Assembly (NCBI GenBank): GCA_038234375.1
Contig: JBBSUL010000001.1
Coordinates: 1 to 60,347, forward strand
Direction: 5' to 3'
Origin: Solirubrobacterales bacterium
GTDB lineage: Bacteria > Actinomycetota > Thermoleophilia > Solirubrobacterales > Solirubrobacteraceae
DNA: 60,347 nucleotides
In this document: positions 26,359 to 54,965 of the stretch, piece by piece
Layout of the letters: the number at the start of each line of letters is the position of its first letter
Position numbering within the stretch: the first letter of the stretch is position 1
Notes under the pieces: model-generated
Databases searched by the model: none
Seen by the model: only the letters and a program-made list of their open reading frames with translations
What the model was told of the DNA's origin: nothing
Program-made: the position numbers and the translations under genes

Positions 26359-27984
26359 ATGCGCCGGGGTCTGTTCATCGTCGTGGCGGTCCTCGTCGTG
26401 GTGTTGGCGACTGCGGGTTCGGCTGGCGCGCATTCGGCGTTTCTGGGGTCAACCCCGGAGCCGGGGGCGCGCCTGGAGCGTGGCCCGCGTCTGGTGAAGT
26501 TGACGTTCACCGAGCCGCTGAACGAGCGGTTGAGCACGGCGACGGTGGTACGTCTGGGGAGCGGTGGAGGACCGGTGCGGACGCGCGGTCGGCCATCGGG
26601 CAAGCGCTTGATCCTGGAGGTGTTGGCCACGTTGCCGCGTGGGGCCTATCAGGTGCGGTGGCACACGGTGTCCACGCGTGACGGTCATGCGCTGGAGGGC
26701 ACGTTCGCCTTCGGGGTGCGGGCGGCGGTGGCGGGCGGGGGTGAGCATGACGTGCAGCAGAGCCCGTTCGCGCGGCAGGGTGAGCTTCGGGTGGCGGCCC
26801 GCGTCCTGTTGTACGCGTCGCTGCTGGTCTTCGGCGGCGCGCTGTTGGTGCAGGCCATGCTGGGTGGTCGCGACGGGCGCTGCTGGCTGACGCTCGCGGA
26901 CACAGGCGATCCGGCTCGTGTGCGGGTGAGCAGGCGTGAGCGTGCGATCGTGCTGCACGCGGGCTGCGTGGCGGTCGGGGCGGCCGCGTTGAGTGCGGCC
27001 GCCGATGCGGCGGACGCTGCGGGTGGGTTCTCGGCCCGCGGCCTGGCGGAGTTCCTGTTGTACGCCGACGCGGGTCTGACGCGCCTGGCCGTCGTCGGTC
27101 TGCTCGCCGTGGCTCTGGCTGTCGTCGCGGCGGGCCGGCGGCGCGCAGCGGTCGTCCCGGCGGCGGCGGCCATGTTGGCGCTCGCGGTCTCCGGGCACGC
27201 CAACGCGAGCGCCCCGCGGGCGCTGGCCGTGCTCGTCGACTGGCTGCACCTGCTGTCGGCGGCGGTGTGGGCCGGAGGCATTGCTGTGCTCGTGCTCGTG
27301 TGGCTGCCGCTGCTGAGCGGGGCGCCTCGCTCCCGGCGGCACGCCGTCGCAGGGCAGGTGCTGCCGGCGTTCGGGCGGGTCGCCCTACCGGCGTTCGTCG
27401 TGGTTGCCGTCACCGGCATGGTGTCCGCGGGGATCGAGCTCGGCCGTGTCACGGCGTTATGGCAGTCTGACTACGGGCGCGTGCTCATGGTGAAGGTCAG
27501 CGTGGTTGTGCTGATCGCGGCGGCCAGTGCGGTGCACGCCTGGCGCCTGCGGCCGCGCTTCCTGGCCGAGCGGATCGAGTCACGGTCACGCTCCGAGCGC
27601 CGCCACTGGCGGCTGCTCGGGGTCGAGCCGGTGCTCGGCCTGGGCGTCGTCGCGGCGGTGGGGGTGCTGGTGGCCTTTCCGTTGCCCCCGCGGCAGCTCG
27701 ACGACGCTGGCAGCGCCGAGGCCGCGGTCGCCGCCGTCCCGGATTGCTCGCCGTGCCCGCTTCCGTCTCCGCGGCCGGGCGAGCTGGCGGTGGCCGAGCA
27801 CGCGGGCTCCAACGTCGCGGCCGCGTGGGTGCGCCGCGACGGTGCTGCGCTCGTGGGCACGGTGCGGGTCTACGGCCTGAACAAGCGCCCGCGGCCCGGA
27901 CCGTTGCGAGTGCCGGTGCGGTGCAGCGCTCGTGCGGGAGCGGGTGCCGAAGGATCCGCCTGGCGCGCGCGCCACGGGCGTTGA
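26359..27984 (+). CDS. CopC/CopD copper-resistance fusion (probably continues to 28577 across a frameshift)
   Basis: Signal peptide ending A-H, S.P..G, W..VS..DGH, TM domain with SGHA and HLL...WAGG, YG..L..K. Confidence 0.85.
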   Translation: MRRGLFIVVAVLVVVLATAGSAGAHSAFLGSTPEPGARLERGPRLVKLTFTEPLNERLSTATVVRLGSGGGPVRTRGRPSGKRLILEVLATLPRGAYQVRWHTVSTRDGHALEGTFAFGVRAAVAGGGEHDVQQSPFARQGELRVAARVLLYASLLVFGGALLVQAMLGGRDGRCWLTLADTGDPARVRVSRRERAIVLHAGCVAVGAAALSAAADAADAAGGFSARGLAEFLLYADAGLTRLAVVGLLAVALAVVAAGRRRAAVVPAAAAMLALAVSGHANASAPRALAVLVDWLHLLSAAVWAGGIAVLVLVWLPLLSGAPRSRRHAVAGQVLPAFGRVALPAFVVVAVTGMVSAGIELGRVTALWQSDYGRVLMVKVSVVVLIAAASAVHAWRLRPRFLAERIESRSRSERRHWRLLGVEPVLGLGVVAAVGVLVAFPLPPRQLDDAGSAEAAVAAVPDCSPCPLPSPRPGELAVAEHAGSNVAAAWVRRDGAALVGTVRVYGLNKRPRPGPLRVPVRCSARAGAGAEGSAWRARHGR

Positions 27985-36956: not shown

Positions 36957-38041
36957 GAGGCTGCGGCCGGGTAGCGGACCTCGGCCCAGCCCCCGTCGGG
37001 GCGGCCCTCGAGGGTCAGGGTGCCGTGGAGGCCCTGCTCGGCGACCTGACGCACGAGTTGGAGGCCCAGGCGCGGAGGGTGACCTCCCGGTCCGGAGCCG
37101 GAGTCGGTGACCCGCAGCACGATCTCCTTGCCGCGTCGCAGGTGGACGGCGATCGGCGGACGCCCGTGGCGAGCGGCGTTGGTGATGAGCTCGTTGGCGA
37201 CGATGCCCAGATGCTGGGCGCGGGCGGCGTCCAGGGTGAGCGGGTCGATGTCCAGCGATGGTCTCACGCCGGCGGCCTGGGCGACGGCATCCAGCACCGA
37301 GTGGGCGTCGACGGCATCGTGCCCGCCGGCCAGCAGGCGGTGCACGGCGGCGATCGCCCGGATGCGCTCCGCCGTCTCGTCGAAGCGCCGACCGTCGGGG
37401 CCGTCGGGGCGATTGAGCAGCAGCACGTCGGCGACGATCTGCAGGCTGTTCTTGACGCGGTGATGGGCGTCGGCGACCAGCGCTCGCGTCAGGTGGGAGT
37501 GAGCGTCGGCTTCGGCCCGCGCCGCGGCCTCGCGGGCGGTCAGCCGGGCGAGCACCACCGCCAGCAGCGTGGTGGAGGCCAGCAGCGTCAGGCGCAGGAA
37601 GACATCCCCGGCGGCAAGGGGCGCAAGCACGACGGTCGAGGCAAAGGCCAGGGCGGCCAGCGCCAGCCAAGCGACGCGTCGCCTGGCCTGGTGCACGGTC
37701 GCCAGGAAGGGCGTGATCAGGAACAGCAGCAGGTCCAGGTGCGATGTGGCACCGCCCAGCGCGACGACCAGCGTTGCCAGCGCGAGCAGGCCGCCTGACC
37801 ACAGGTCGAGCATCGCCTGTCCGCGCCCGGCGGTCAGCCATCGCTGCCAGGGGACAACCATGAGCATGGCGTTCGCGGCGGCCGCGACGAGAATGAGGAT
37901 CAGCAGCTCGTCGGGGTGCCGGGCCGGCAGGCCGAGGGTCAGCGCACCCAGCACCGCGGCGACCGATCCCCAGCCCAGCCACCAGCCGGCGCGCAGCGCC
38001 GGAAGACGCACGTCGTGATCGGCGGTGTCGGGCACGGTCAT
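36953..38041 (-). CDS. Membrane sensor histidine kinase (HisKA_2 type)
   Basis: TM N-terminus, HHRVKNSLQ, NELITNAARHG, DSG.G, LGL.LV. Confidence 0.9.
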   Translation of the reverse strand: MTVPDTADHDVRLPALRAGWWLGWGSVAAVLGALTLGLPARHPDELLILILVAAAANAMLMVVPWQRWLTAGRGQAMLDLWSGGLLALATLVVALGGATSHLDLLLFLITPFLATVHQARRRVAWLALAALAFASTVVLAPLAAGDVFLRLTLLASTTLLAVVLARLTAREAAARAEADAHSHLTRALVADAHHRVKNSLQIVADVLLLNRPDGPDGRRFDETAERIRAIAAVHRLLAGGHDAVDAHSVLDAVAQAAGVRPSLDIDPLTLDAARAQHLGIVANELITNAARHGRPPIAVHLRRGKEIVLRVTDSGSGPGGHPPRLGLQLVRQVAEQGLHGTLTLEGRPDGGWAEVRYPAAAS

Positions 38042-38130
38042 CGGGTAAGCTTCGCAGCACGGCGTTCCCGACACGACGCCACCCGAGGTCACGATCGCCT
38101 CCTCACTGTTGCTCTCTTCAGGAGGTCGTC

Positions 38131-38370
38131 GTGCATCACACCGAGTTCGTCCTTCCGGGCCTGGACCTTCACCTTGTCGCCGTCGTGCGGTGGGAGCTGT
38201 TCGTCTTTGGAGACGTGCGCGACGTCCAGCACAGCCCGATCCCGGACACCGTCGTCGTGGTCCATCGTGGCGACGCGTGCCCCACGGCATGGCGAGCGAC
38301 GTTGCTGGCCGTCGGGATCGGGACCCGCCAGCCGGCCCCGGCGGTCGGCGTCACCGAGCAGCAGGCATGA
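38131..38370 (+). CDS. Small hypothetical protein
   Basis: AGGAGG RBS just before GTG; compositionally protein-like (VRWELFVFGDVRDV). Confidence 0.55.
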   Translation: MHHTEFVLPGLDLHLVAVVRWELFVFGDVRDVQHSPIPDTVVVVHRGDACPTAWRATLLAVGIGTRQPAPAVGVTEQQA

Positions 38371-38404
38371 ACCGCACACGAACGGTTCCTCCGGCGAGGT
38401 CCCG

Positions 38405-39487
38405 ATGATGCGGTGGACGACATCCGAGGACCGGCAGCTGGCGAGCATGTACGCCGACGGTCTGCCGCTGGCGGTCATCGCCAAGCGCCTGGGACGCTCG
38501 GAGGACGCGCTCGTGGCGCGTCGATCGGCTCTCGGTATCGCGCCGCGTGGACACCCCCGCGACTGGTCACCTCGCCTGGACGCACTCATCATCGCCAGCG
38601 CCCAGGCCGGCGTGTCCTCCCGCGTGGTGGCTGAGCGCCTGGGACTTTCGGTCCATGCCGTGCGCTGGCGCCGGCGGCAGCTTGCCCCCGGCCGACCCGC
38701 CGCCCGACGCTACGACGCTGCGGAGGACGACGCCCTCCGCAGGCTCGTGGCCGAGAATGGAGGCTTCGAGGACCTGGCCGACCGGCTGGGACGCTCCACC
38801 CAGGCCCTGCGCCTGCGGGCCCGCAAGCTGGGCCTCCTGGAATGCAACCGGCGGTCACGCTGGACCGAGGAGGAGGACCGGCTCCTGCGCGTCTGCTACG
38901 CCACCGGGCTCACGTGCGCCGCCATCGCCGCCGAGCTTCCCCATGACCGCACTGCCGAGGCCGTCGCTGCCCGGGCGCGACGGCTCGGACTGGCCGCCTA
39001 CGCCCGCCAGTGGACGACCGTCGAGGATGAGCGCCTGCGGGTGCTCACCCGCGCCGGGACACCCCTGGAGGACGCGGCCGTGGCGCTGGACCGCACGCCG
39101 GAAGCTCTGCGGCGCCGCGCTCGAAAGCTCGGCCTCCAAGCGTTGAGCGCTCGCGCCCGTGCCGGCAAGGTCCGGCCCTGGAGCGGACGTGAGGACCGGT
39201 TGCTCAGGGCGACTCCCGGCGTCAATCCCGCCGCGCTGGCGGCGGCGCTCGGACGCTCAGACCGCGCTGTCCTGCAGCGCCGGCGAGAGCTCGGGCTGCA
39301 CGAGGGTCGAGAGCGCTCGCCCCACCACCGCCTCGCGGCCAGCGGCCCGTCCACCACGGTGGCGGCACCGCGAGGACGCGAGCTTGCCGCCGACGCTGCC
39401 CGCCGACGTCAGGCGGCTGTCTTCCCATCGTCCACCCGTCCGCCGGCGCACCGTTCGGCGGGCCTTCGAACGGAGCCCCCAAGATGA
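38405..39487 (+). CDS. Protein with six tandem Myb/SANT-like HTH repeats
   Basis: Repeated W(T/S)xxEDxxL...LGR(S/T)xxA(L/V)xxRxxxLG units of ~50 aa. Confidence 0.8.
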   Translation: MMRWTTSEDRQLASMYADGLPLAVIAKRLGRSEDALVARRSALGIAPRGHPRDWSPRLDALIIASAQAGVSSRVVAERLGLSVHAVRWRRRQLAPGRPAARRYDAAEDDALRRLVAENGGFEDLADRLGRSTQALRLRARKLGLLECNRRSRWTEEEDRLLRVCYATGLTCAAIAAELPHDRTAEAVAARARRLGLAAYARQWTTVEDERLRVLTRAGTPLEDAAVALDRTPEALRRRARKLGLQALSARARAGKVRPWSGREDRLLRATPGVNPAALAAALGRSDRAVLQRRRELGLHEGRERSPHHRLAASGPSTTVAAPRGRELAADAARRRQAAVFPSSTRPPAHRSAGLRTEPPR

Positions 39488-39915: not shown

Positions 39916-41082
39916 TCAAAGGGTCTTGGACTTCGACGGGGACTTGGAGAAGTACTTCGGCGAGACCTTCGGCGTGTACCCCTTGTAGGAGAAGACCCGC
40001 GTCATGCCGACCGGGGCGCCGTTGTACCCGGAGGCCATCCCGTTGGCGGTGTGGTGGGGGAAGTGGCAGTGGAAGACCCAGTTGCCGGGGTTGTCGGCGC
40101 GGAACTCCAACTCGTAGAAGTCACCCGGGTTGACCGTCTGCGTCGTCTCGCGGACCGGCGGGATCGCGTGGCCGTTCTTGGAGACCGCGATGATGTCGTG
40201 GCCGTGCAGGTGCATGGCGTGCGTCTCCTGCGAGGCGTTGTAGACGCGGATGCGGACGAGGTCGCCCTTCTTGATCTCGATGGGCCCGCCGGAGGCGTCC
40301 CCGGTCTTGCCGTTGATCGTGTCGTAGGGGAACTTGCCGCCGGGGCCGACACCGAAGGGCTTGACGAGCTGGTTGTTCTTCTTGAAGCCCCAGATCTGCA
40401 GGGTCATGTTGACGTCGACGTCGGCCTTGACCGACTGGTGCTCTTCCTTTGGCAGGACGTCGATCATCCCGCTCAATCCACGCTGGTCCTGCACGGCGGT
40501 CTGGAAGTGGGAGTGGTAGGCGAACGAGCCGATGTGGCCGGGGGCGACCTCGTAGGTCTTCTCGCCGCCGACGGGGATCGGCTTGGGCTGGCTGATGCCG
40601 GCCACGCCGTCCTGGTCGTTGGGCTGGTGCAGGCCGTGCAGATGGATCGTCGTCGGCTCGGGCAGGTTGTTGCTGACCTTGATGCGCATCTTCTCGCCCG
40701 CGTAGGCGATGAGGGTCGGACCGGGGGACGAGCCGTTGTAGCCCCACACCTTCGCGCGCTGCTGCGGGAAGTTGGCGATCTTCTGGGTCATCTGCGTGGC
40801 GTTGAGCGTGTAGGTGCGCACGTTGCCCTGCTTGACGCCCATTTCCGTCTTGACCGACGGGGTGTCGGGGACCGTCGGCTTGACCATCGGCCCGCTGCCG
40901 GTGTTCTCGTACTCGACGCCGACGCCCCCGATCTTCGCCTGCTCGGGGGCGGCAGCGGCGGGTGTCCCCTCGGCAGCGGCGGTGGTCTGGCCGGAGGAGC
41001 TGTCTGAGCCGCAGGCCGACAGCGGCAGCGCGAGCGCGACCAGTGCGGGCAGCGCGGCGTGACGGAGGGTGAGGCGGGGCAT
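39916..41082 (-). CDS. Two-domain multicopper oxidase, lipoprotein
   Basis: Lipobox LSAC; IHLHG, YHSH, HAMHLHGH, HCHFPHH...GM. Confidence 0.92.
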   Translation of the reverse strand: MPRLTLRHAALPALVALALPLSACGSDSSSGQTTAAAEGTPAAAAPEQAKIGGVGVEYENTGSGPMVKPTVPDTPSVKTEMGVKQGNVRTYTLNATQMTQKIANFPQQRAKVWGYNGSSPGPTLIAYAGEKMRIKVSNNLPEPTTIHLHGLHQPNDQDGVAGISQPKPIPVGGEKTYEVAPGHIGSFAYHSHFQTAVQDQRGLSGMIDVLPKEEHQSVKADVDVNMTLQIWGFKKNNQLVKPFGVGPGGKFPYDTINGKTGDASGGPIEIKKGDLVRIRVYNASQETHAMHLHGHDIIAVSKNGHAIPPVRETTQTVNPGDFYELEFRADNPGNWVFHCHFPHHTANGMASGYNGAPVGMTRVFSYKGYTPKVSPKYFSKSPSKSKTL

Positions 41083-41194: not shown

Positions 41195-41211
41195 ATACCC
41201 CCATGGGGTGT
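41195..41211. promoter_or_regulatory. CsoR-type operator
   Basis: ATACCCCCATGGGGTGT, same 17-bp pattern as the boxes at copZ/csoR. Confidence 0.65.
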
Positions 41212-41273: not shown

Positions 41274-42752
41274 TCAGAGGATGCGGGCGGCCTCGGCGAG
41301 GCCGAGCAACGGCTCCGCGGCCAGCCCGCCCAGCACCGTCGCCGCGGCCATCGTGGCCATCGCGGCGCGCAGGCCCCGGTGACGCCGGACGGGACCGGGT
41401 GTGGGCGTTCCGCGGTCGAGGATCGCGGGCGCGCAGAGGCGCAGGTAGAAGACCAGCGAGATCACCGTGTTGACCACGGCGACGACCGCCAGCCACGACT
41501 GCCCGGCGTCGATCGACGCGCGGAAGACCTCGAGCTTGGCGAAGAACCCGGCCAGCGGCGGCAGCCCCAGGAGGGAGAGCGCCGAGAGGGTCAGGGCGGC
41601 CGTCCACCACGGGTGCGCGCGCCCGAGGCCACGCAGGGCGTCCAGGTCCACCGAGCGGCGCTCGCGCTGCACGGCGATGATCACCGCGAACGCCGTGAGG
41701 TTGGCCACCGCGTAGGCCATGGCGTAGAAGGCGAAGGACGACAGGCCGCCCGGGGAGCGCTCGATCGCGGCGATCCCCATGAGCAGGTAGCCGGACTGCG
41801 CGATCGAAGAGTAGGCCAGCAGGCGTACGGTGTTGCGCTGGCCGAGCGCCGCGAGGTTGCCGAGGGTCATCGTCAGCGCCGCGAGCACGGCGATCGCCGT
41901 GGACCAGCCCGCGGTGTCGCCCGGCAGCGCGAGGGGCAGGACCCGGGCGATGGCGGCCAGGCCGGCGAGCTTGGAGACGACCGAGAGGTAGGCGGCGACC
42001 GAGAGCGGGGCGCCGTCGTAGGCGTCCGGCGTCCAGAAGTGGAAGGGGACGAGGGCGGCCTTGTAGCCGAGGCCGACGAGCACGAGGGCGGTGGAGCCGA
42101 CCACGACGCCGGTCGGCGCGTCCGGCAGCGCCCGGCCGACCGCGGCCAGGCTCGTGGACCCGGTCACCCCGAACCACCACGACAGCCCGTAGGTCATCGC
42201 CGCGCCGGACACCGTGCCGAACAGGTAGTACTTGATCGATGCCTCGTTGCCGCGGGGCGAGTCGCGCAGGTAGCCGGTGAGCACGAACGTCGCCAGGCTG
42301 GACAGGCCCAGGGAGATGGCCAGCAGGCCGATGTCCGCAGCCGAGCCGAGCACGACGGCGCCAAGCGAGGCGGCGGCGAGCAAGGCACCGAACTCGCCCT
42401 CGCGGTCGGTGCCCGAGACGGTGGGGTGGGCCAGGGCGACGCATGCCGCTCCACCGACGCCGACGATCATGCACAGCATCAGCGACAGGCCGTCGACCAT
42501 CACGGTGCCCGACATGACCGCCTTGAAGCCACGGTCGGCCCAGACGACGCCGGCCACCGCGGCGGCCGCCAGGTGCCCGGTGGCGACGAAGACGCCGACG
42601 GCGCCCTGGCGTCCGCGCGGCAGCACGATGGCCAGCAGCACCGCGCCCAGCGCGGTGACCACGAGCGCGCCGATGGGCACGAGCCACACGAGCTCGTGGA
42701 GCATCGTGTCCTCGACGGCCTTGGCCTGCGCGTAGGTGCCGACGTTGTCCAT
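41274..42752 (-). CDS. nuoN: Complex I antiporter-like subunit N
   Basis: EASIKYY, K..LVPFHFWTPDAYDGAP, RLLAYSSI, GLPPLAGFFAK. Confidence 0.92.
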   Translation of the reverse strand: MDNVGTYAQAKAVEDTMLHELVWLVPIGALVVTALGAVLLAIVLPRGRQGAVGVFVATGHLAAAAVAGVVWADRGFKAVMSGTVMVDGLSLMLCMIVGVGGAACVALAHPTVSGTDREGEFGALLAAASLGAVVLGSAADIGLLAISLGLSSLATFVLTGYLRDSPRGNEASIKYYLFGTVSGAAMTYGLSWWFGVTGSTSLAAVGRALPDAPTGVVVGSTALVLVGLGYKAALVPFHFWTPDAYDGAPLSVAAYLSVVSKLAGLAAIARVLPLALPGDTAGWSTAIAVLAALTMTLGNLAALGQRNTVRLLAYSSIAQSGYLLMGIAAIERSPGGLSSFAFYAMAYAVANLTAFAVIIAVQRERRSVDLDALRGLGRAHPWWTAALTLSALSLLGLPPLAGFFAKLEVFRASIDAGQSWLAVVAVVNTVISLVFYLRLCAPAILDRGTPTPGPVRRHRGLRAAMATMAAATVLGGLAAEPLLGLAEAARIL

Positions 42753-42758
42753 GGTGGT

Positions 42759-44240
42759 TCAGCCCGCGCCGACCAGCCACGCGGCCGACCCCGCGACGTC
42801 GAGGATCACCCTGGGATACACGCCGATGGCCACGAACGCCGCGACGAGCGGCAGCGCGGCGAGCGCCTCGCGCCCGTCCAGGTCCGGCAGGAACGCGAAG
42901 CGGTCGGGCGTCGGGCCCATGAAGGCGGACTGCAGCACGCGCAGGAACAGCGCGGCGGTGACCGCCAGGCCGAGCAGGGCCAGTCCGGCGATGACGGGGA
43001 ACACGTCGAACGTCCCGAGGAAGATCTGCAGCTCGGCGGGGAACTGGGCCAGGCCGGGGATGCCCAGCGACGCGAAGCAGGCGATCGCGACGAGGACGCC
43101 GAGACGCGGCAGGGGCCCGAGCAGGCCCGCCAGCTCCCGCAGGTCCCGCGTGTGGGTGCGCTGCTTCAGCAGGCCGGCGAGCAGGAACAGCGCGGCGGTC
43201 ACCAGGCCGTGGGCGACCATCTGCAGCACGGCGCCGTCGATGGCCAGCTCGCGCCCGCGCGGGCTGATGCCGCTCGCCGCCGCCGCGGCGACGGCCATGA
43301 CCACGTAGCCCATGTGGTTGACCGAGGTGTAGGCGATGAGGCGCTTGAGGTCGGTCTGGGCCAGCGCGATGAGCGTGCCCCAGAGCGCCGAGACCAGGCC
43401 GAGGATCGCCACCGCGAGCGCGTACTTGGCGAACGGGGCTGAGAGCATCTGCAGGTTCACGCGGACCAGGCCGTAGGTGCCCATCTTCAGCAGCACCCCG
43501 GCGAGCAGGATGGACCCCGTCGTCGGCGCCTGGACGTGGGCGGCGGGCAGCCAGGTATGGAACGGGACGATCGGCGTCTTGATGGCGAAGCCGACGAGGA
43601 AGGCCAGGAACACGAGGCTGGCGGCGGTCCCGGCGTCCTGGTAGGCCGGGTCGGCGGCCAGGCGGATCATGTCGAAGGTGTGCGGCTCGGAGTGCAGGTA
43701 CAGGGCGATGATCCCGAGCAGCACCGGCAGCGAGCCGATCAGGGTGTAGAGGAAGAACTTCAGGGCCGCATAGCGGCGCTCCTCCTCGCCCCACAGGGCG
43801 ATGAGGAAGTACATCGCCACGAGCGTCACGTCGAAGGCGACGTAGAAGAGGATGAAGTCCTCGGCGAGGAAGAAGGCCAGCGTCGAGCCCTCCAGCAGCA
43901 GCAGCAGGCCGCACGCGGCGCGGCCCATCGGCCGCGGCCCGACACCGTGGACGACGCTGACCGCGAACAGCAGCACGGTCAGCGCGCAGAGCGCGAGGGC
44001 CATCCCGTCCACGCCCAGGCGCCAGGCGACGTCGAGGGTGGGGATCCACCGCGCCTCTTCGACGAGCTGCATGCCCTGGCCCGGATCGAAGCGCACCCAG
44101 GTGGCCACGATGCAGGCGGCGCTGATCGCGGTCATCGCCGCGGCCAGCGCCAGGGGTGTGCGGCCCTCGCGCACAGGGAGGAAGGGGCTCAGGGCGGCGC
44201 CCAGGAGGGGGGCGAGGACGGCGATCGAGAGCAGGGGCAT
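42759..44240 (-). CDS. nuoM: Complex I antiporter-like subunit M
   Basis: KFFLYT, KTP.VPFHTWLP.AHVQAP, LLKMGTYG, KRLIAYTSVNHMG. Confidence 0.93.
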   Translation of the reverse strand: MPLLSIAVLAPLLGAALSPFLPVREGRTPLALAAAMTAISAACIVATWVRFDPGQGMQLVEEARWIPTLDVAWRLGVDGMALALCALTVLLFAVSVVHGVGPRPMGRAACGLLLLLEGSTLAFFLAEDFILFYVAFDVTLVAMYFLIALWGEEERRYAALKFFLYTLIGSLPVLLGIIALYLHSEPHTFDMIRLAADPAYQDAGTAASLVFLAFLVGFAIKTPIVPFHTWLPAAHVQAPTTGSILLAGVLLKMGTYGLVRVNLQMLSAPFAKYALAVAILGLVSALWGTLIALAQTDLKRLIAYTSVNHMGYVVMAVAAAAASGISPRGRELAIDGAVLQMVAHGLVTAALFLLAGLLKQRTHTRDLRELAGLLGPLPRLGVLVAIACFASLGIPGLAQFPAELQIFLGTFDVFPVIAGLALLGLAVTAALFLRVLQSAFMGPTPDRFAFLPDLDGREALAALPLVAAFVAIGVYPRVILDVAGSAAWLVGAG

Positions 44241-46066
44241 CAGGTGAGGGCGGTGATGGCCAGCAGGATGGCGATGGCGGCGACGCCGAGCACGGCGTCG
44301 CGCAGGTACTCGTACAGGCGGCCGGACTGCAGGCGCTGTGTGCGCGCGCCGCCGTGCCCGACGGCGTGCGCGAGGCCGTCGACGGCCGCATCGATGCCGT
44401 GCAACTCCACGCGGTCGGCGGCGTGGGCCGCGCGCACGGTCGCCCGGGCGCCCGCGTCGACCACCCGGTCCACGACACGTCGCTCGGCGGCGTCCAGCGC
44501 CCGGGCCAGCGCGAGCGTCGGCCGCTGGACGACGACGCGCAGCAGCAGCTCCAGGTGCAGCTGGTGGGCGGCCGCGGAGCGCAGGGCCTGCGGCACGCGC
44601 ACGGCCAGCAGCACCCCGCCCGCTCCGACGCCCAGCGCGGCGATCGAGAGCACGAGGCTCGGCGTCGATGTCGGCAGGGCGGGGGCGTGCAGGACCGTGC
44701 GGAGGGGGCCGCCGAGCACACCGAGGAGGATCGAGGCCCCCGCGAGCGCCCCGCACGCGGCGAGCATCGCCGGCCGGCCCTCGCGGCGCACGGGGTGCCC
44801 GGCGCCCGCGCGATCCCACAGCACCAGGGCGGGGCGCAGGACGTAGGCCGCGCCCCCGGCGGCGGCCAGCAGCACGAGGACGAACCACGCGGTGTGGCTC
44901 TCGGAGGCGGCCGCGATGTGGTCCTTGCTCCAGAACACCGCCAGCGGCGGGACGGCGGCGATCGAGGCGCCGCACACCGCGAAGGCCGTCATCGCGCCCC
45001 GCGCGTCGCGCCCGGCCCCCCGCAGGTCCGCCAGGGCGGTGCTGGAGCGGTCGCGCTGGAAGACCCCGGCGCACAGGAACATGCCGGCCTTGCCGGCCGC
45101 GTGGGCGACGAGATGGAACACGCCGACGGCCGGGCCGCCGGCGGCCACCCCGACGAACATGAGCCCGAGCTGGCTGGCCGTCGATCCGGCCAGCACGCGC
45201 TTGAGGTCGTCCTGGCCCAGGGCGATGAGCGCCCCGGCCACCGCGGTCAGCGCCCCGACCCAGCCCGCGACCTGCAACGGCCATCCGGCCAGCAGCTGCG
45301 CCGAGCGGGCCAGCAGGTAGACGCCGGCGGCGACCATCGTGGCCGAGTGCAGCAGCGCGCTGACCGGGGTGGGGCCGGCCATCGCACCCGACAGCCACGT
45401 CGACAGCGGGACCTGGGCGCTCTTGCCCATCGCCGCGACCACGAGCCCGAGGCCGATGGCGGCGCCGAGCGCCCCGGGCGGGCGGTCCTGGCCGAAGGCG
45501 AGGCTGCCGGACGCGGCCACGAGCGCCAGCACCGCCAGGTACAGGCCGACGTCGGCGGTGCGCGTGGTCAGGAACGCCCGCACCGAGGCCGCGGCCGCGG
45601 CCGGGTCGCTGCGGTGGTGCGCGATGAGGCGGGCGCTGGCCACCCCGACGAGCTCCCAGAAGATCAGCAGCGTCAGATAGCCGTCGGCGAGGACGAGGCC
45701 CTGCATCGCCGCCAGGAAGGCCAGCAGACCGGCGAGGGCCGAGCGTCCTTGCGGGTCGTCGGCGAAGTACCCGGTGGCGTGCACGAGCACCACGAGGCCG
45801 ATGACGGCGACGGTCACGGCCATCACCGCGCCCAGGCCGTCCAGGCGCAGCCCGGCGTCCAGGCCGCCCGAGGCGTTCAGCCAGCGCAGCGTCGAGGTGG
45901 CGCGCCGACCGTCGGCGGCCGCGACGAGCAGGACGACGGCGGGAACCGACGCGGCCACCGCGCCGGTCAGCGTGGCCACGGCGGCGACACGGTCGGGCAA
46001 GGCCCGCACGAGCCCCGCGGCGACCAGGGGGACGAGCACCGCCGACCACAGCAGCACGCCGGTCAT
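44240..46066 (-). CDS. nuoL: Complex I antiporter-like subunit L
   Basis: FWELVG, GKSAQ.PL..WL..AMAGPTPVSALLHSATMVAAG, SKD.I, QSG. Confidence 0.93.
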   Translation of the reverse strand: MTGVLLWSAVLVPLVAAGLVRALPDRVAAVATLTGAVAASVPAVVLLVAAADGRRATSTLRWLNASGGLDAGLRLDGLGAVMAVTVAVIGLVVLVHATGYFADDPQGRSALAGLLAFLAAMQGLVLADGYLTLLIFWELVGVASARLIAHHRSDPAAAAASVRAFLTTRTADVGLYLAVLALVAASGSLAFGQDRPPGALGAAIGLGLVVAAMGKSAQVPLSTWLSGAMAGPTPVSALLHSATMVAAGVYLLARSAQLLAGWPLQVAGWVGALTAVAGALIALGQDDLKRVLAGSTASQLGLMFVGVAAGGPAVGVFHLVAHAAGKAGMFLCAGVFQRDRSSTALADLRGAGRDARGAMTAFAVCGASIAAVPPLAVFWSKDHIAAASESHTAWFVLVLLAAAGGAAYVLRPALVLWDRAGAGHPVRREGRPAMLAACGALAGASILLGVLGGPLRTVLHAPALPTSTPSLVLSIAALGVGAGGVLLAVRVPQALRSAAAHQLHLELLLRVVVQRPTLALARALDAAERRVVDRVVDAGARATVRAAHAADRVELHGIDAAVDGLAHAVGHGGARTQRLQSGRLYEYLRDAVLGVAAIAILLAITALT

Positions 46067-46371
46067 CCGCGCAGCTGCGTCAGGTCGTCGGCTTCGGCGG
46101 TGCGGCTGTGGCGGAAGGCGCTGACCACGAGCGCGAAGCCGATGGCGCCCTCGACGGCCATGAGCGTCATGAGGATGAGCACGAAGAACGCGCCGGAGGT
46201 CGCGTCGGGCCAGGTGTACCGCAGGAAGCCGACGACGTTCAGCGCGGCGGCCCCGAGCATGAGCTCGACGCCCATGATGATCATGATCGTGTTCGTCTGG
46301 CCCAGGACGCCGTACACGCCGACGCCGAACAGCAGGGCGGCGCTGACCAGGACCAGCGGCAGCGAGATCAT
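46063..46371 (-). CDS. nuoK: Complex I subunit K
   Basis: M.VELML, A.E.AIG, terminal L.G. Confidence 0.9.
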   Translation of the reverse strand: MISLPLVLVSAALLFGVGVYGVLGQTNTIMIIMGVELMLGAAALNVVGFLRYTWPDATSGAFFVLILMTLMAVEGAIGFALVVSAFRHSRTAEADDLTQLRG

Positions 46372-46910
46372 CACTCGCGCTCCTCGCCGGCCGGGGCATC
46401 CAGGCCCAGGCGCCCGCCGTGCTGGGCCAGCAGCACCCCGCCGATCATCGCGAAGAGGATCGTCACGCCGGCGAACAGGAAGGAGAACATCGAGCGGCTC
46501 ATGACCTCGAAGCCGATGGCCTCCACGTCCGGGGCCGACCGGCCGGCCACGCGGCCCGGCCAGTCGGTCGCCACGGCGAGCACGGCCAGCGCCGCCGTCA
46601 CCGCGACGGCGACCGCCGCCGAGCGACGGGGCTGGTGGGTCATGTCCATGCCCATCAGACCACCCGGGTCGGGCATGAACATGACCATGAAGAAGGTCAT
46701 GACGACCATCTCCCCGCTCATCATGAGGACCATCAGCACCCCGAGGAACTCGCTGGCCAGGGCGAGGAACAGCAGGCCCTCGAAGCCCAGCGCGCCGAGC
46801 AGCAGCAGGCCGGCGCGGGCCATCGAGCTCGTGCGGAAGACCTGCACCGCGGTGACGAGCATCAGCGCGGCGGCGGGCCAGAAGACCAGCGCGGTGGCCA
46901 CCGCGCTCAT
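46371..46910 (-). CDS. nuoJ: Complex I subunit J-like, Met-rich
   Basis: Position between nuoH and nuoK, five TM, EFLG, AMIGG. Confidence 0.8.
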   Translation of the reverse strand: MSAVATALVFWPAAALMLVTAVQVFRTSSMARAGLLLLGALGFEGLLFLALASEFLGVLMVLMMSGEMVVMTFFMVMFMPDPGGLMGMDMTHQPRRSAAVAVAVTAALAVLAVATDWPGRVAGRSAPDVEAIGFEVMSRSMFSFLFAGVTILFAMIGGVLLAQHGGRLGLDAPAGEERE

Positions 46911-47815
46911 CGGTAGAACACCAGGGTGACCAGGCCGCCCCAGGCGATGGCGACGATGGCCAGCGGGTTGGCCAGCCGCCAGGCCAGCGAGACGACCTGG
47001 TCCACGGGCATCCGCGGCAGGCGCGTGGCGCTCCACAGCAGCAGGGCGGCGACGGCCGCGGTCTTGATCGCCATCCACAGCGCCCCGGGCAGCAGCGGCC
47101 CGTGCCAGCCGGCGAGGAACAGCGCGGCGGTCATGCCCGAGACCGCGAGGATGAGGATGCGCTGGGCGAGGTCGACGAGGGCGCGGTCCAGCCCGCGGTA
47201 CTCGTCGAACACGCCGCCGCGCAGCTCGCCGGAGGCCTGCGCGACGTCGAACGGGGAAAGGAAGCACACGGCCTGCACCGCGGGCAGCCACAGCGCGAAG
47301 GCCAGCGGCTGCACGAGCGCGGCGGGCACGGCGTGCTGGACGTCGACGATGTCGGTGACGCGCAGCGACCCGGCGGGCGCGGCGACGGCGGTCAGCGTCA
47401 TCGCCAGGGGCATGGCGTAGGCGAGCATCAGCGCGATCCAGCGGAAGGCTCCGACCACGGCCAGCGGTCGCCCGGAGCCCCAGCCGGCCATGAAGATGGC
47501 CGGGGTCACGTAGGCGAGCATCGCCGGGAAGGCGATCGCCCCCGTGGAGAGGTCGATGCCGCGGAAGGACGGAGACCACGGGACGAAGGCCAGCGCGCCG
47601 ACCGCGCCGAGCACGAGCAGCAGCGGAGCCAGGTGGAAGAGCACGCCGTCGCGCTGCTCGGGCACCGAGATCGGCTCGGCGAACGCGCGCCGGACCGCGA
47701 GGACCATCTCGCCCGGGCCCGCGGCGCGGGGGTCGATGGCGTGGTGCAGGAGGCCGAGCGCACCCGAGCCGGCCAGCGCCACGAGCAGGATCCACACGGG
47801 GGTCAGCTCGCTCAT
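46907..47815 (-). CDS. nuoH: Complex I subunit H-like
   Basis: AGW.S, GAFR, PFD...A..EL.GG...EY.G, LFLAGW.G, PR...DQ. Confidence 0.88.
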   Translation of the reverse strand: MSELTPVWILLVALAGSGALGLLHHAIDPRAAGPGEMVLAVRRAFAEPISVPEQRDGVLFHLAPLLLVLGAVGALAFVPWSPSFRGIDLSTGAIAFPAMLAYVTPAIFMAGWGSGRPLAVVGAFRWIALMLAYAMPLAMTLTAVAAPAGSLRVTDIVDVQHAVPAALVQPLAFALWLPAVQAVCFLSPFDVAQASGELRGGVFDEYRGLDRALVDLAQRILILAVSGMTAALFLAGWHGPLLPGALWMAIKTAAVAALLLWSATRLPRMPVDQVVSLAWRLANPLAIVAIAWGGLVTLVFYR

Positions 47816-49029
47816 GCGGTCGCCGCCCACCCGGAGAGGTCGAAGGACACGAGGGTGGCCAGCGCGGCCGACCATTCGGCGCCGAGGGCGGCCGCTGCGG
47901 CCAGGTCGGCCGTGGCGGCCGCCGCGTGGTCGCCGGCACCGAGCGGGCCGCGCGGCCCCTCGACGGTGGCGGCGGATGGCGGGGGGCACACGGTGCCGGC
48001 GCGCGCCGCGGAGGCCGCGGCGGCGGCGAGGACGACGGCCTGCAGGGCCTCGCCGGCGCGCACGAGCGTCCGGGCCAGCGCGTCACCGGCGGTGTGGGCG
48101 AGGACGGGCTGGAAGCCGAGGTGGGCGTAGGCCGGATCGCCGCTGCGCACGTCGTCGTTCAGACCGCAGGCTCGCGCCACCGGGCCGCGAGCCGCAGCGG
48201 CGTCGCCGGAGCTGACGGTGCCGACCCCCGCCAGGCGCCGGCGCAGCGGACGGTCGGCGGCCACCAGGCGGCTCAGACAGCCGACGGCGTCCCGCCCGTC
48301 GGGCGTCCCGGCGTGCAGCGTGCGGATGACCGCGCCCGCGGCGGCGACGAGGCGGCCGTGATCCAGCAGCCGGCCCAGCGCCCGCAGCCACGCGGCGTGG
48401 CTGAGGGCGCGCTCGCGCTCGACGGTGGCGATGAGGCCCCAGCGCTCCGGGCCGCTCGTGGCTGCCGAGGCGCGGGCCTGCTCATTCCGCGTGGCGCGGG
48501 CCGCCGGGGTCAGGGGGTCGCCGCCGACGCCGGCGAGGGTGCGGGCCACCCGGCAGGCGGCGACGACGTCCCCGTCGAGCGTGATCTGCGCGGTCACGCC
48601 CGCGGGCAGCGGGGGCCCGAGCGGGCCGAGCGTCAGGTCGATGTCCTCCATGACCAGGCCGTCGGCGGACGGATCGCCGATGATGGCCATCATGTCGTGG
48701 TCGTCGTGCTCCTCCTCGTGCCCGTGGTGGCCGTCCTCCTCGGGGGCCGGCGTCACGTCCCCGCGCGCGGCACGGGCGACGACGTCCCGCAGGCGCGGCC
48801 CGGCCGTCGCGCCCGCCGTGGGGCTGTGCACCGTCAGGCCCGCCGGCGCATCGCCCAGCCAGCGCCCCAGCGCGCGGTGAAGGCCCTCGGGCACCCGGTC
48901 GGGGCACAGCAGCACACGCGTCGATGCCGGACTCACGGCGGGCGTCAGCGACGTCGTGTCCTGGCCCCACGCGGCCCAGTGCTGCTCGTCGGGGACGATG
49001 AGGACGCCACGCGTCTGCGGCGCGTTCAC
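47812..49029 (-). CDS. Degenerate NuoB/NuoD-like fusion with His/acidic linker
   Basis: NuoD-like LGP...LDGD.V, E.ER..SH..W, GP.ARA.G...D.R..DP.Y, GDA.AR..VR..E, VE.PRG, S.D.S; N-terminal SP...VLL segment resembling NuoB without its Cys set. Confidence 0.7.
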   Translation of the reverse strand: MNAPQTRGVLIVPDEQHWAAWGQDTTSLTPAVSPASTRVLLCPDRVPEGLHRALGRWLGDAPAGLTVHSPTAGATAGPRLRDVVARAARGDVTPAPEEDGHHGHEEEHDDHDMMAIIGDPSADGLVMEDIDLTLGPLGPPLPAGVTAQITLDGDVVAACRVARTLAGVGGDPLTPAARATRNEQARASAATSGPERWGLIATVERERALSHAAWLRALGRLLDHGRLVAAAGAVIRTLHAGTPDGRDAVGCLSRLVAADRPLRRRLAGVGTVSSGDAAAARGPVARACGLNDDVRSGDPAYAHLGFQPVLAHTAGDALARTLVRAGEALQAVVLAAAAASAARAGTVCPPPSAATVEGPRGPLGAGDHAAAATADLAAAAALGAEWSAALATLVSFDLSGWAATA

Positions 49030-49349
49030 CCTGACTCCAGCGCGCCCTCGCGCCACGCGTAGAGGATGCCGAGCCCCAGAACGGTGAGGAAGAAGCCGAT
49101 CTCCGCGTAGGCGAACACGCCGAGTCGGCGGAAGACGACCGCCCACGGGTACATGTAGGCCATCTCCATGTCGAAGGCGATGAACAGCAGCGCCACGACG
49201 TAGTACCGCACGTGGTACCTGGGCCACGCGGGCGCCTGCCCGGGATGGCGGACCACGACCCCCCGCCGGACGAGCGTCGTGCCGTAGGCACACGCGATCA
49301 GACCGGCGGTCAGAACGAGAAGGACGAAGAAGAGCTCCAGGGCGGTCAT
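49026..49349 (-). CDS. nuoA: Complex I subunit A
   Basis: VRYY.VALLFI.FD.E...YPWA, Y.WR.GAL. Confidence 0.9.
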   Translation of the reverse strand: MTALELFFVLLVLTAGLIACAYGTTLVRRGVVVRHPGQAPAWPRYHVRYYVVALLFIAFDMEMAYMYPWAVVFRRLGVFAYAEIGFFLTVLGLGILYAWREGALESG

Positions 49350-49572: not shown

Positions 49573-50652
49573 ATGTCGACAGCCCGATCCGCTTTCCGGC
49601 CACCGGCCGTGCTCACCGCGCTGTTGGTGACGGTGGCCGCCCTGGCCACGTTCTCCGGGGCTGCCGACGCCCGCAGCCGATCAGATCGCCTCGTCTCCCC
49701 GCGTCTGCCGGTGACCCCGAGCGTCTCCACCATCCGCGGGGTCAAGCGCGGCAACACCCGCACGTTTCGCCTGACGGCCTCGCAGTTCACGCAGCAGATC
49801 GCGAACTTCCCGATCCGCACCGCGCAGGTCTGGGGCTACAACAAGTCCACGCCGGGCCCGACGCTGGTGGCGTACAAGGGCGAGAACCTCCGCGTGATCC
49901 TGCGCAACCTGCTGCCCGAGCCCACGACCATCCACTTCCACGGTGCCGGCGCCTCAAACTATGACGACGGCGTCGCCGGCATCAGCCAGGTCAACCCGGT
50001 TCCCGTCGCAGGCAGCCACACGTACGCGTTCAAGCTCAGGCGAGCAGGCACGTTCGCCTACCACTCGCACACGAACTCCGCGCGACAGGAGCTCCGCGGC
50101 CTGGACGGCTTCCTCGTCGTGCTCCCGAGGCGTGAGAAGGCGTCCGGCCGCGTCGACCGCGACTACGCCATGGCCCTGCAGCAGTTCGCCCCGCCCGGCG
50201 AGGGTGAGCTCGTCGACCCGTTTCCTCCGGGCACCGGTGACTTCCCGTTCTCGACGATCAACGGCAAGACCGGCGAGGCCTCTGGGCGCGTGCTGACGAT
50301 CCGGAGGCTGGAGCGGGTGCGCATCCGCCTGTACAACGCGTCCAATCTGTCGCACTCGATGCACCTGCACGGCATGCCGTTCCGCACCACCTCGCGCAAC
50401 GGCTACGAGATCCCCAAGGCCGCCCAGAGCCCGCAGACCGTGGTGAACCTGGCGCCCGGGGAGTTCTTCGACATCGAGTTCCGCGCCACCCGGCGTGGGA
50501 ACTGGATCTTCCACTGCCACGTGCCCCACCACACGTCCAACAAGATGATGGACGGCTACCACGGCGCGCCGGTCGGCATGACGCGGGTGTTCCACGTCGG
50601 ACCCTTCCGTCAGGTGCCCAAGGCGTACTTCGACTACGCCGGAGGAGCGTGA
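49573..50652 (+). CDS. Two-domain multicopper oxidase, secreted
   Basis: Signal peptide; IHFHG, YHSH, HSMHLHG, HCHVPHH...M. Confidence 0.92.
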   Translation: MSTARSAFRPPAVLTALLVTVAALATFSGAADARSRSDRLVSPRLPVTPSVSTIRGVKRGNTRTFRLTASQFTQQIANFPIRTAQVWGYNKSTPGPTLVAYKGENLRVILRNLLPEPTTIHFHGAGASNYDDGVAGISQVNPVPVAGSHTYAFKLRRAGTFAYHSHTNSARQELRGLDGFLVVLPRREKASGRVDRDYAMALQQFAPPGEGELVDPFPPGTGDFPFSTINGKTGEASGRVLTIRRLERVRIRLYNASNLSHSMHLHGMPFRTTSRNGYEIPKAAQSPQTVVNLAPGEFFDIEFRATRRGNWIFHCHVPHHTSNKMMDGYHGAPVGMTRVFHVGPFRQVPKAYFDYAGGA

Positions 50653-52094: not shown

Positions 52095-54371
52095 TCACGT
52101 CGCCGCGGTCGCCGCCGGCGTTCGGCGCTGCGCCCGGAAGCTGCGCAACCGCAGGGAGTTGGAGACGACGAACACGGAGCTGAAGCCCATCGCCGCGCCG
52201 GCGAGGACGGGGTTCAGGTACCCGGCGGCCGCGACGGGGATGAGGATGACGTTGTAGGCGAAGGCCCAGAACAGGTTGCCGCGGATAGTGCGCAGCGTGC
52301 GGCGCGAGAGGCGGATCGCGTCGGCGGCGGCACGCAGGTCGCCGGAGACGAGCGTCAGGTCGGAGGCCTCGATGGCCACGTCGGTGCCGGTGCCGATGGC
52401 CAGGCCGAGGTCGGCCTGGGCCAGCGCGGGGGCGTCGTTGACGCCGTCGCCGACCATGGCCACGGTGGCGCCCTCGCCCTGCAGGCGCATGATGACGTCC
52501 GCCTTGCCCGCGGGGAGGACCTCGGCGATGACCTCGTCGATGCCGACCTGGGCGGCGACGGCCTCGGCGGTGGCCTGGTTGTCACCGGTGAGCAGCACGG
52601 TGCGCAGGCCCAGGCCACGGAGGGCGTCGATGGCCTCCGGCGAGCTCTCCTTCGGGGTGTCGGCGACGACGAGCACGGCACGGACCTCGCCGTCCCAGCC
52701 GGCGAGGATCGCGGTCTGGCCGCGCTGCTCGGCCGCGTCCTGCGCGGCGTCGAGCTGCGCGTCCGGCGTCATGCCGTGGTCGGCGAGCAGGGCGCGGCGT
52801 CCCACGAGCACGGCGTGGCCGTCGACGGTGCCCTGCACCCCGAGCCCGGCGTGGTTGGCGAAGTCCGTGACGTTCGCAAGCTCGGTCTCGGCGCGGGCTG
52901 CCCGCGCGATGGCCTGGGCGATCGGGTGCTCGGAGGCGTCCTCCAGCGCGCCGACGAGCGTCAGGACCGTCGCCCGGTCGGTGTCCGCGGTGGCTGTCAC
53001 CTCGACGAGCGTCATGCGCCCGGTGGTCACGGTGCCGGTCTTGTCCAGGACGATCGTGTCCACGCGACGGGTGGACTCCAGCACCTCCGGGCCCTTGATG
53101 AGCAGACCGAGCTGGGCGCCGCGGCCGGTCCCGACGAGCAGGGCCGTCGGCGTGGCCAGGCCCAGGGCGCAGGGGCAGGCGATGATTAGCACGGCCACGG
53201 CGGCGGTGAACGCGAACGCGGCAGACTCGCCGGCCAGCAGCCAGCCGGCCAGCGTCACGGCGGCGATGACCAGGACGACGGGCACGAACACGCCCGATAC
53301 GCGGTCGGCCAGCCGCTGCACGGGAGCCTTGCCGCTCTGCGCGTCGGTGACCAGGCGGGCGATCTGGCCCAGCGCGGTGTCGGCGCCGACCTTCGTGGCG
53401 CGCACGATCAGCCGCCCTCCGACGTTGACGGTGGCGCCGACGACCTCGTCTCCGGGACCCCGCTCGACCGGGACGGACTCGCCGGTCAGCAGCGACTGGT
53501 CCACAGCACTGGATCCGTCCTCCACGACGCCGTCGGTGGCGACCTTCTCGCCGGGGCGCGCGACGAAGCGGTCGCCGACGTGCAGCTCGGTGATCCCGAC
53601 GCGCCGCTCCTTGCCGTCGTCGTCCAGGACGACGACCTCCTTGGCCCCGAGCTCGAGCAGGGCCTCCAGCGCCGCCCCGGCGCGGCGCTTGGCCCGGGCC
53701 TCGAAGTAGCGCCCGGCGAGGATGAAGGTGATGACGACCGAGGCGACCTCGAAGTACACATGGTCCAGCGCCGCCGACCGCTCGGCCACGAGGGTGAAGG
53801 ACATGGTCATCCCGGTCATCCCGGCGTCGCCGAGGAACAGGCCGACGACCGACCATGACCAGGCGGCGAGGGTGCCGATGGAGATCAGGGTGTCCATCGT
53901 GGCCGTGCCGTGCCGGGCGTTGAGGTAGGCGGCGCGGTGGAAGGGCCAGCCGGCGTAGAAGACGACGGGAGTGGCCAGGTTCCACGCCAGCCACTGCCAG
54001 TTGTCGAACTGCAGCGCCGGGATCATCGACAGCACGAGCACGGGCAGCGAGAGGACGGCGGCGACGAGCAGGCGGGTCCGCAGGGCCTGGAGGTGCGCGT
54101 CCGCGGGGTCGTCGTCGCCGGGACCGTCGGCCTCAGTGTCCGGCGCGGGGACCGTCGCGTCGTAGCCGGCCGCGCGGATCGTGTCGACGAGCAGTTGCGC
54201 GTCGGCCGGGGTTCCCTCGGCGTAGCTCACCGCCGCTTTCTCGGTGGCGTAATTGACGCTCGCGCTGACGCCGTCGAGTTTGTTCAGCTTGCGCTCGATC
54301 CGGTTCGCGCACGACGCGCAGGTCATTCCGGTGATCGGCAGCTCCAGCTCGGGGGACTCGGTCGTGCTCAT
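52095..54371 (-). CDS. copA: Cu(I)-translocating P1B-1 ATPase
   Basis: [36 protein letters not shown]. Confidence 0.95.
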
Positions 54372-54568
54372 CCGATCACCTCGTATCCCGCGTCGTGCAC
54401 CGCCGTGCGGATCTCCGCCTCCGCTGCCTGACCGGTGACCGTCACCCGGCCGGAGGCGAGGTCCACGTCGACGGCGTCGACGCCGGCCACCTCGACCACC
54501 TCTTCGGCGACCGCTCGGCGGCAGTTCTCGCACGTCATCCCCTGTACGGTGTAAGTCTGCTCGGACAT
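54368..54568 (-). CDS. copZ: Copper chaperone
   Basis: GMTCENC HMA domain, terminal AGY. Confidence 0.93.
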
Positions 54569-54674: not shown

Positions 54675-54965
54675 ATGGCTACGACCCCGACCCGCGGCTA
54701 CACGGCCACCAAGGACCAGTTGCTCAAGCGCCTCAGCCGCGTCGAGGGCCAGGTGCGCGGGGTGAGGAGCATGGTCGACGAAGACCGCTACTGCATCGAC
54801 GTCCTGACCCAGATCGGGGCGATCCAGGCGGCGCTGGACAAGGTCGCGCTGGGGCTCATGGACGACCACGCGCATCATTGCGTGGTCGGCGGTCCGGCCG
54901 ACCAGCAGGACGAGCGCACTGAGGAGCTCATGGGCGCGGTGGCCCGGCTCATGCGTCGAGGCTGA
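54675..54965 (+). CDS. csoR: Copper-sensing repressor
   Basis: RLSRVEGQVRG, YCIDVL.QI, H.HHC (C-H-C ligands). Confidence 0.93.
   Translation: MATTPTRGYTATKDQLLKRLSRVEGQVRGVRSMVDEDRYCIDVLTQIGAIQAALDKVALGLMDDHAHHCVVGGPADQQDERTEELMGAVARLMRRG

Follow-up and report, generated by a model that had tools for sequence, protein, structure and literature searches.

What does the complete membrane arm of respiratory complex I do in a copper locus, when the subunits that would make it an NADH dehydrogenase are missing? The question is raised by a 60,347-nucleotide (nt) stretch of DNA from a Solirubrobacterales bacterium (assembly GCA_038234375.1, contig JBBSUL010000001.1, positions 1-60,347 of the forward strand), termed the window in the following, which carries on its minus strand the operon nuoA-X-nuoH-J-K-L-M-N. 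A previous reading of this DNA, made from the sequence alone (the sequence-only reading), had proposed that the operon encodes a non-respiratory machine that uses the proton motive force for copper export, import or the loading of oxidases. Our analysis supports this proposal and adds a feature that the previous reading had not observed, a cluster of methionines in NuoA, NuoJ and NuoK, which would give it a concrete copper path. We conclude that the operon probably encodes a complex I-derived membrane complex, devoid of iron-sulphur (Fe-S) and quinone ligands to judge from its sequence, which exports Cu(I) by means of the proton motive force; that it serves export, rather than import or oxidase loading, is a choice that we infer.

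Operon architecture and subunit X

All eight open reading frames (ORFs) are intact, their stops and starts overlap or nearly touch, and they have a high GC content at third codon positions. Pfam and NCBIfam assign seven of them to NuoA, NuoH, NuoJ, NuoK, NuoL, NuoM and NuoN, confirming the tightly coupled operon with a whole complex I membrane arm that had been described before. No space is left for nuoC, nuoI, nuoE, nuoF or nuoG, as the sequence-only reading had also stated. For the eighth gene, X, the only match in the Pfam and NCBIfam scan is PF00346 (49-kDa family); no NCBIfam model reaches its cut-off with the X of the window or with six X homologues tested, and some databases name the protein 'Ni,Fe-hydrogenase III large subunit'. 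Since a separate canonical nuo operon is found on another contig (C11) of the same genome, the operon of the window encodes an additional complex.

Searches with X gave 25 genome and 58 metagenome loci, and samples at the level of class and phylum gave more; the resulting family of loci is weighted to related Solirubrobacterales. In total 90 loci were checked by tblastn, with NuoB not among the queries and with X directly after nuoA. As far as the contigs reach, and with few exceptions, they have the gene order A-X-H-J-K-L-M-N, and none of the 90 gives a match to NuoC or NuoI.

Subunit X (47812..49029, minus strand, 405 residues) combines a NuoB remnant (residues ~1-90), a linker (~95-128) and a shortened NuoD fold (~127-404). 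Its AlphaFold model, built with 109 homologues, has a predicted local distance difference test (pLDDT) score of 90.1, and residues 127-404 are predicted to adopt the NuoD fold (Z 25.6, root-mean-square deviation 2.5 Å, 270 residues aligned to Paracoccus NuoD). The top Foldseek matches of the model are NuoD/NDUFS2 throughout, and the C-terminal part matches the NuoD profile with a probability of 99.75. The N-terminus, in turn, matches NuoB in hhalign (probability 94.9, E 4.5e-8), and the crossed comparisons of the N-terminal part with NuoD and of the C-terminal part with NuoB are negative. There are also weak NuoB family matches and a structural match that alone lies within noise (Z 4.9); single-sequence folding of residues 1-100 gave a pLDDT of 42.5, and its result was not used for the NuoB link. 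By profile comparison, the N-terminus of X is a degenerate, cysteine-less NuoB, so that X is not only NuoD-like, a refinement of the sequence-only reading.

The ligands of the redox cofactors are missing from X throughout the family. The X of the window has five scattered cysteines and neither a CC nor a CxxC motif, and among 120 homologues there is no conserved cysteine column, the best one being occupied in 53/120. The CC pair of NuoB, which supplies cysteines of cluster N2, is found in the first 130 residues of none of 390 full-length X proteins, whereas 20/20 canonical NuoB sequences have CC or CxC. An intact nuoB, an Fe-S cysteine set and NiFe motifs are lacking, as previously claimed. 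Likewise, the quinone-site His pair of the NuoD loop GPxHPxxHG is present in 0/145 family rows compared to 18/18 canonical rows, and the quinone-site Tyr of Escherichia coli aligns to Pro172 of the window X. Any CxxC at all, the motif that binds Ni in hydrogenases, occurs in only 1 of 144 C-terminal parts of X. We tried a hydrogenase identity as a candidate, and the lack of CxxC rules it out.

The linker between the NuoB and NuoD parts is rich in His, Asp and Met in the window and in His and Met in the family. It contains the motif of a heavy-metal-binding domain (HMBD), in one to seven copies, in 102 of the 390 full-length X proteins and none in the other 288. Such Cys-containing domains, several of which X can carry, together with the many invariant residues that X keeps in its NuoD fold, could point to a redox or energy-conserving device in which copper on X or on the HMBDs replaces the Fe-S wire, either for copper reduction or for proton pumping driven by downhill copper. 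However, the quinone-site His pair and the acidic residues of NuoH are gone, most X proteins have no HMBD and one plasmid copy (L222, see below) has no X altogether, which makes a device of this type very unlikely.

A methionine signature in NuoA, NuoJ and NuoK

The most distinctive residues of the family are in the small membrane subunits. NuoJ (46371..46910, minus strand, 179 residues) has ten family-specific methionines at positions 30, 63, 64, 68, 71, 75, 79, 88, 90 and 141, which together with E67 and H92 are present in 68/68 family rows compared to 0/28 canonical rows; M79 has a frequency of 0.03 in a larger canonical control. In NuoA (49026..49349, minus strand, 107 residues) M61, M63, M66 and the family-specific H46 are found in 85/85 family rows, D60 and E62 (E. 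coli D79 and E81) are kept within the family motif D-M-E-M-x-x-M, and the first loop is shorter and without the canonical YEC motif. NuoK (46063..46371, minus strand, 102 residues) has the family-specific M30 and M71 in 63/63 family rows and keeps E36 and E74 (E. coli E36 and E72). Across all seven membrane subunits, 15 of the 16 family-specific, near-invariant Met columns are in NuoA, NuoJ and NuoK (388 residues) and one is in NuoH, NuoL, NuoM and NuoN (1895 residues).

Most of these methionines lie on or around helix 3 of NuoJ, where positions 63, 64, 67, 68, 71, 75 and 79 point to the same side of the helix (resultant 0.64, p 0.017). By alignment to E. coli, M64 stands in place of the canonical Y59, E67 in place of A62 and M68 in place of I63. 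All three replacements are at the pi-bulge of NuoJ helix 3, the gate by which, according to PMC10212512, complex I opens and closes its central axis. The pattern extends beyond the loci that define it: the helix-3 set is kept in nine of ten loci outside the definition, and the motif was found in 12/12 further loci. The tenth locus, the X-less L222, has kept Y59 and has six of the other NuoJ methionines in addition to M141. M88, M90 and H92 are in a loop of NuoJ which we take, from the topology, to be cytoplasmic and beside the NuoB/D arm. We predict that NuoJ forms the core of the Cu(I) path.

NuoL and NuoM, on the other hand, have kept their proton-pathway residues. NuoL (44240..46066, minus strand, 608 residues) retains E138, K215, H240, K326 and K381 (E. 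coli E144, K229, H254, K342 and K399), and NuoM (42759..44240, minus strand, 493 residues) retains D137, K221, K252, H309, H344 and E403 (E. coli E144, K234, K265, H322, H348 and E407). NuoN (41274..42752, minus strand, 492 residues) keeps K231, K261 and K406 and has lost its helix-5 Glu (E. coli E133). In NuoH (46907..47815, minus strand, 302 residues) the canonical D63 and E241 are lost and E157 is mostly lost across the family, while D213 and E220 are mostly retained.

Such Mrp-like proton pathways in NuoL and NuoM would also suit a copper-gated H+/Na+/K+ antiporter or a proton conduit, in which Met and His bind a regulatory copper ion and which protects pH, ion balance or membrane potential during copper stress without any copper being moved. 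This would be in line with the half of the loci that have no adjacent copper gene (see below), and with potassium-channel-like genes beside or inside some operons (annotated in L224, an insert in L033). However, the methionines cover a whole helix face and both of its ends, which exceeds what a single allosteric site needs, and the operon has no module resembling MrpE/F/G, which the review PMC8165549 ties, in one of its sections, to Na+ translocation. We consider an antiporter gated by copper to be improbable.

The operon belongs to none of complex I, group 4 hydrogenases, Ehr/MBS and Mrp, yet it descends from complex I, and the earlier view that its layout fits no known class therefore holds. 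It shares with complex I (the 14- and 11-subunit Nuo forms, NDH-1 and Fpo) the seven membrane subunits in canonical order, the NuoD fold and NuoB remnant of X, and the central-axis residues of NuoL, NuoM, NuoK and NuoA. It differs in that NuoI, NuoC, NuoE/F/G, the CC pair of NuoB and the quinone-site His are missing, in the loss of the NuoH acids and the NuoN helix-5 Glu, in its Met-rich NuoA/J/K, and in being mobile and linked to copper. The fold of X resembles the large subunit of group 4 [NiFe] hydrogenases, MBH, MBS and Ehr. Ehr complexes keep Fe-S subunits. In contrast, X lacks the N- and C-terminal CxxC motifs of group 4 hydrogenases and MBH, its NuoB part is cysteine-less and there is no NuoI, so that no Fe-S-bearing small subunit is present. 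Parts of complex I have been reused for non-respiratory transport with a soluble metal-binding partner in DabAB/MpsAB, which consist of one NuoL-like subunit and a carbonic-anhydrase-like partner, and in the NDH-1 variants for CO2 uptake, which keep the Fe-S arm. The operon, in contrast, keeps the whole membrane arm while the Fe-S arm is gone. The likely logic is that of the Mrp Na+/H+ antiporter: with no redox input, protons passing antiporter-like subunits would drive a cation through an adjoining module of small subunits, as set out for Mrp in section 4 of PMC8165549. Unlike Mrp, however, the operon has NuoH, NuoA, a NuoB/D derivative and three antiporter-like subunits but no MrpE/F/G Na+ module, and its membrane subunits score better to Nuo than to Mrp models.

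Copper genes, CsoR-type operators and the direction of transport

The operon of the window is flanked by two multicopper oxidases and lies near copA, copZ and csoR, in agreement with the sequence-only reading. Downstream there is a two-domain multicopper oxidase with a lipoprotein-type signal (39916..41082, minus strand), and a second two-domain multicopper oxidase (49576..50652, plus strand) is divergent from nuoA. Genes for a P1B ATPase of the CopA type with an HMA domain and CPC, YN and MxxSS motifs (52095..54371, minus strand), a CopZ-type chaperone with a CxxC motif (54368..54568, minus strand) and a CsoR-family repressor (54675..54965, plus strand) are found 2.7-5.6 kb upstream of the operon; two operator-like sites with three mismatches each are at 54589 and 54636. 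In the family as a whole, 27 of 55 loci with enough flanking sequence have a copper gene in the 5 kb ahead of nuoA, compared to 0/20 canonical operons; five of the query genes for this count were taken from family loci, so that it includes self-matches, the genes concerned being annotated as copper proteins themselves.

A CsoR operator consensus with TAC-N9-GTA, and the lifting of CsoR repression at excess copper, are described in PMC3902906. A first scan with a 16-base spacing gave 0/83 and was followed by one with the 17-base form that matches the published consensus, a pattern fixed after some of the nuoA sites had already been seen. Within 260 bases upstream of nuoA, a CsoR-type site with at most two mismatches occurs in 17/76 loci compared to 1 of 1342 control upstream regions; with at most three mismatches the figures are 25/76 and 5/1342. 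As eight further loci start directly behind csoR, 33/76 have either a site with at most three mismatches or csoR itself. The same pattern is present before csoR in 21 of 23 cases. In the window, a CsoR-type operator with one mismatch to the consensus (41195..41211) lies after nuoN and ahead of the downstream oxidase gene; of the 1342 upstream regions that were tested in this genome, no other has a site with at most two mismatches.

Putative control of the CsoR type and shared transcription with copA and copZ favour export over import or oxidase loading. The same Met-lined Cu(I) path might nevertheless serve import, or supply copper to cuproproteins outside the cytoplasm (the neighbouring multicopper oxidases, for example), instead of bulk detoxification. 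Oxidases or cupredoxins are indeed frequent neighbours (in the window and in L013, L014, L020, L128, L195, L218, L219 and L224), coexistence with CopA would be accounted for, and the near-core presence of the operon in the family f23 (18/31 genomes) would suit a housekeeping role. Many loci, however, have no oxidase nearby, and many have the operon behind one of csoR, copA and copZ or behind a CsoR-type site, which, read together with the derepression at excess copper reported in PMC3902906, fits export better. We therefore regard import or loading as unlikely.

For the proton-driven Cu(I) exporter that we favour, the following cycle can be envisaged. The His/Met-rich or HMBD-containing linker of X would gather cytoplasmic Cu(I), perhaps from CopZ. 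X would dock on NuoH in the way NuoB and NuoD do in complex I and pass the ion to the M-x-M-x-H loop of NuoJ, from where Cu(I) would follow the row of methionines on NuoJ helix 3, assisted by D-M-E-M-x-x-M of NuoA and by Met and Glu of NuoK and gated by the helix-3 rotation known from complex I. Protons entering via NuoL and NuoM would drive the cycle through the central charged axis, comparable to reverse electron transport and to Mrp antiport, and Cu(I) released outside would be oxidised by the neighbouring oxidases. The complex may carry Ag(I) as well. The working analogy is CusA, the HME-RND exporter of Cu(I) and Ag(I), in which, according to PMC7558416, proton-driven transport carries Cu(I) along a methionine ladder. 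The putative exporter differs from CusA in that the fold is unrelated and the operon, which is also present in monoderm bacteria, has no periplasmic adaptor or outer-membrane channel. Assembly into one complex, capture of Cu(I) by X, movement of the ion along these methionines, the proton drive by NuoL and NuoM, the outward direction and induction by copper are all steps that we infer.

Several observations weigh against an exporter. In 28/55 loci the 5 kb upstream contain no copper gene, neither a CsoR-type site nor csoR is found directly ahead in 43/76, and the nuoA of the window itself has no CsoR-type site upstream. Some of the operators are in shared divergent promoters and may act on the gene at the other side (copZ, copA, csoR or an oxidase), and one copy (L193:7385-9420) follows arsR/arsC-like genes, not copper genes. 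The counts are, moreover, not independent, since many loci are from related Solirubrobacterales. Many carriers already have CopA, next to which a second exporter of 2300 residues looks redundant. Methionine is a ligand of Ag(I) as well and commonly takes part in helix packing, the putative clustering of the Met residues in three dimensions derives from the alignment to complex I, and the NuoJ of L222 keeps Y59 and lacks E67 and M68. Finally, loss of the NuoN helix-5 Glu could break the coupling along the axis; the E133A exchange in E. coli NuoN had a mild effect, as stated in PMC3046159.

Spread, genome content and neighbouring genes

Canonical nuoB and nuoI are present in the genome of the window and in five tested carriers from other families, and four copies (L049, L053, L077 and L094) have a frameshift or truncation. 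This might suggest a stress-induced spare arm that recruits canonical NuoB/C/D/I/E/F/G to form an NADH:quinone oxidoreductase, or else a decaying duplicate. However, among 25 of the 26 carriers in the family f21 (98-100% complete, the unpublished genome G890 being excluded), none has a NuoB above the cut-off, a NuoC or a NuoI, so that the missing subunits cannot be borrowed there. Seven weak NuoB matches in these carriers are each ~2 kb upstream of the family nuoJ, which is the position of X. The whole operon is present in 8/8 f21 loci examined, without internal stops. In nine pairs of related loci the ratio of nonsynonymous to synonymous substitution rates (dN/dS) is 0-0.44, highest for X (0.2-0.44), the exceptions being a value of 1.33 for X and undefined values in near-identical pairs. 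Thus, the genes of the operon are under purifying selection. The NuoA loop motif and the quinone-cavity residues of NuoH are lost as well. A spare arm or decaying duplicate is already largely refuted by these results, and we consider it most improbable. Intact ORFs and dN/dS rule out a pseudogene cluster, and the genome content of the 25 f21 carriers rules out a borrowed canonical peripheral arm. Since homologous operons carry no nuoC or nuoI and are copper-linked, since selection is purifying and since uptake of canonical NuoBCDI is excluded in these carriers, the sequence-only reading stands on each of these points.

The operon is found in the same order in Actinomycetota, Chloroflexota (Thermomicrobiales genomes also carry it) and Pseudomonadota, often on plasmids. 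Matches to the NuoJ profile occur in 29/401 Actinomycetota genomes, in 18/31 genomes of f23, where the operon is near-core rather than sporadic, and in 26/251 genomes of f21 (the unpublished G695 is counted in the first two tallies and G890 in the third); none of ten genomes of the family f34 carries it. In the three f23 loci read, the operon is within 3 kb of copA or csoR. Of 14 annotated plasmid stretches, 13 carry the eight-gene operon, namely those of Roseovarius, Paracoccus, Nitratireductor, Thioclava, Acuticoccus, Halomonas, two Rubrobacter, Mycobacterium avium, Arthrobacter, Rhodococcus, Curtobacterium and Pseudonocardia; a plasmid search with one distant X gave no match, whereas other plasmid searches did. 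The fourteenth, from Rhodopseudomonas sp. BAL398 (L222:8437-15795), has the seven genes nuoA-H-J-K-L-M-N without X, and its NuoJ (317 residues) has a long His/Met-rich insert in the loop after helix 3. A quick NuoM tree, in which the canonical rows come solely from E. coli and Actinomycetota, places the 23 family rows together on one side of a branch with an SH-aLRT of 87 (not starred), and L222 branches first among them. The seven-gene form is possibly an intermediate or a further-reduced form. Alphaproteobacterial copies are found at more than one place in the tree, which fits horizontal spread.

In the open literature we found no description of this operon, although subscription papers, supplements and plasmid gene tables may mention it. 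It seems likely that it represents an undescribed branch of complex I, in which the redox cofactors are gone and the NuoA/J/K gate has become a Met-lined transition-metal channel: a proton-driven exporter of Cu(I)/Ag(I), carried on plasmids and islands in at least three phyla and also occurring in an X-less form of seven subunits. If so, the operon would represent a new class of copper-resistance determinants, one that databases conceal under the name 'NADH-quinone oxidoreductase' and that, judging by the tallies for Actinomycetota and f21 and by the many plasmids, including that of Mycobacterium avium, is common enough to matter. For complex I itself it would amount to a natural experiment, in which a full membrane arm runs without quinone chemistry. 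Its substitutions, focused on the NuoJ helix-3 gate, would offer a test of how the central axis couples protons to distant work, and it would add a route from respiratory pump to secondary transporter.

The plasmid pMAH135 of Mycobacterium avium (L217:7633-15775) has the operon adjoining a heavy-metal ATPase and a chaperone, and several other mycobacterial plasmids give a NuoM match of similar score. Three loci have additional ORFs: an extra membrane ORF between nuoJ and nuoK (L033:12521-13399), a gene with a potassium-channel family annotation that immediately precedes the operon (L224:6959-7363) and an unassigned ORF upstream of it (L195:4349-4843). A recurrent accessory channel is possible.

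In the window, a metal-resistance island of ~42 kb (15437-57937) surrounds the operon. It contains ArsR regulators, a methyltransferase, a P450, a cation-efflux gene, a second P1B ATPase, CopC/D, redoxin/CcdA, DUF305 and two pairs of a BlaI-family repressor and an M48/M56 peptidase, and accessory genes of the island are found again beside the operon in many family loci. An ORF at 37916-39487 (plus strand) has several Myb-like/GcrA-like helix-turn-helix repeats, which is unusual for a bacterium. The canonical NuoL of the same genome (L037:5222-7225, C11) has Ala and Val at the positions of E144 and R175; Ala at E144, a residue essential in E. coli, is seen in 3/23 canonical NuoL rows. The canonical nuo operon is split between nuoI and nuoJ by ~3.7 kb (L037:8274-11943), including small ORFs that, judged from sequence, are toxin-antitoxin-like. 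Finally, a tRNA-Ser called by ARAGORN at 26959-27047 is within the CopC/D reading frame and is probably spurious, whereas the tRNA-Pro at 9031-9105 looks ordinary.

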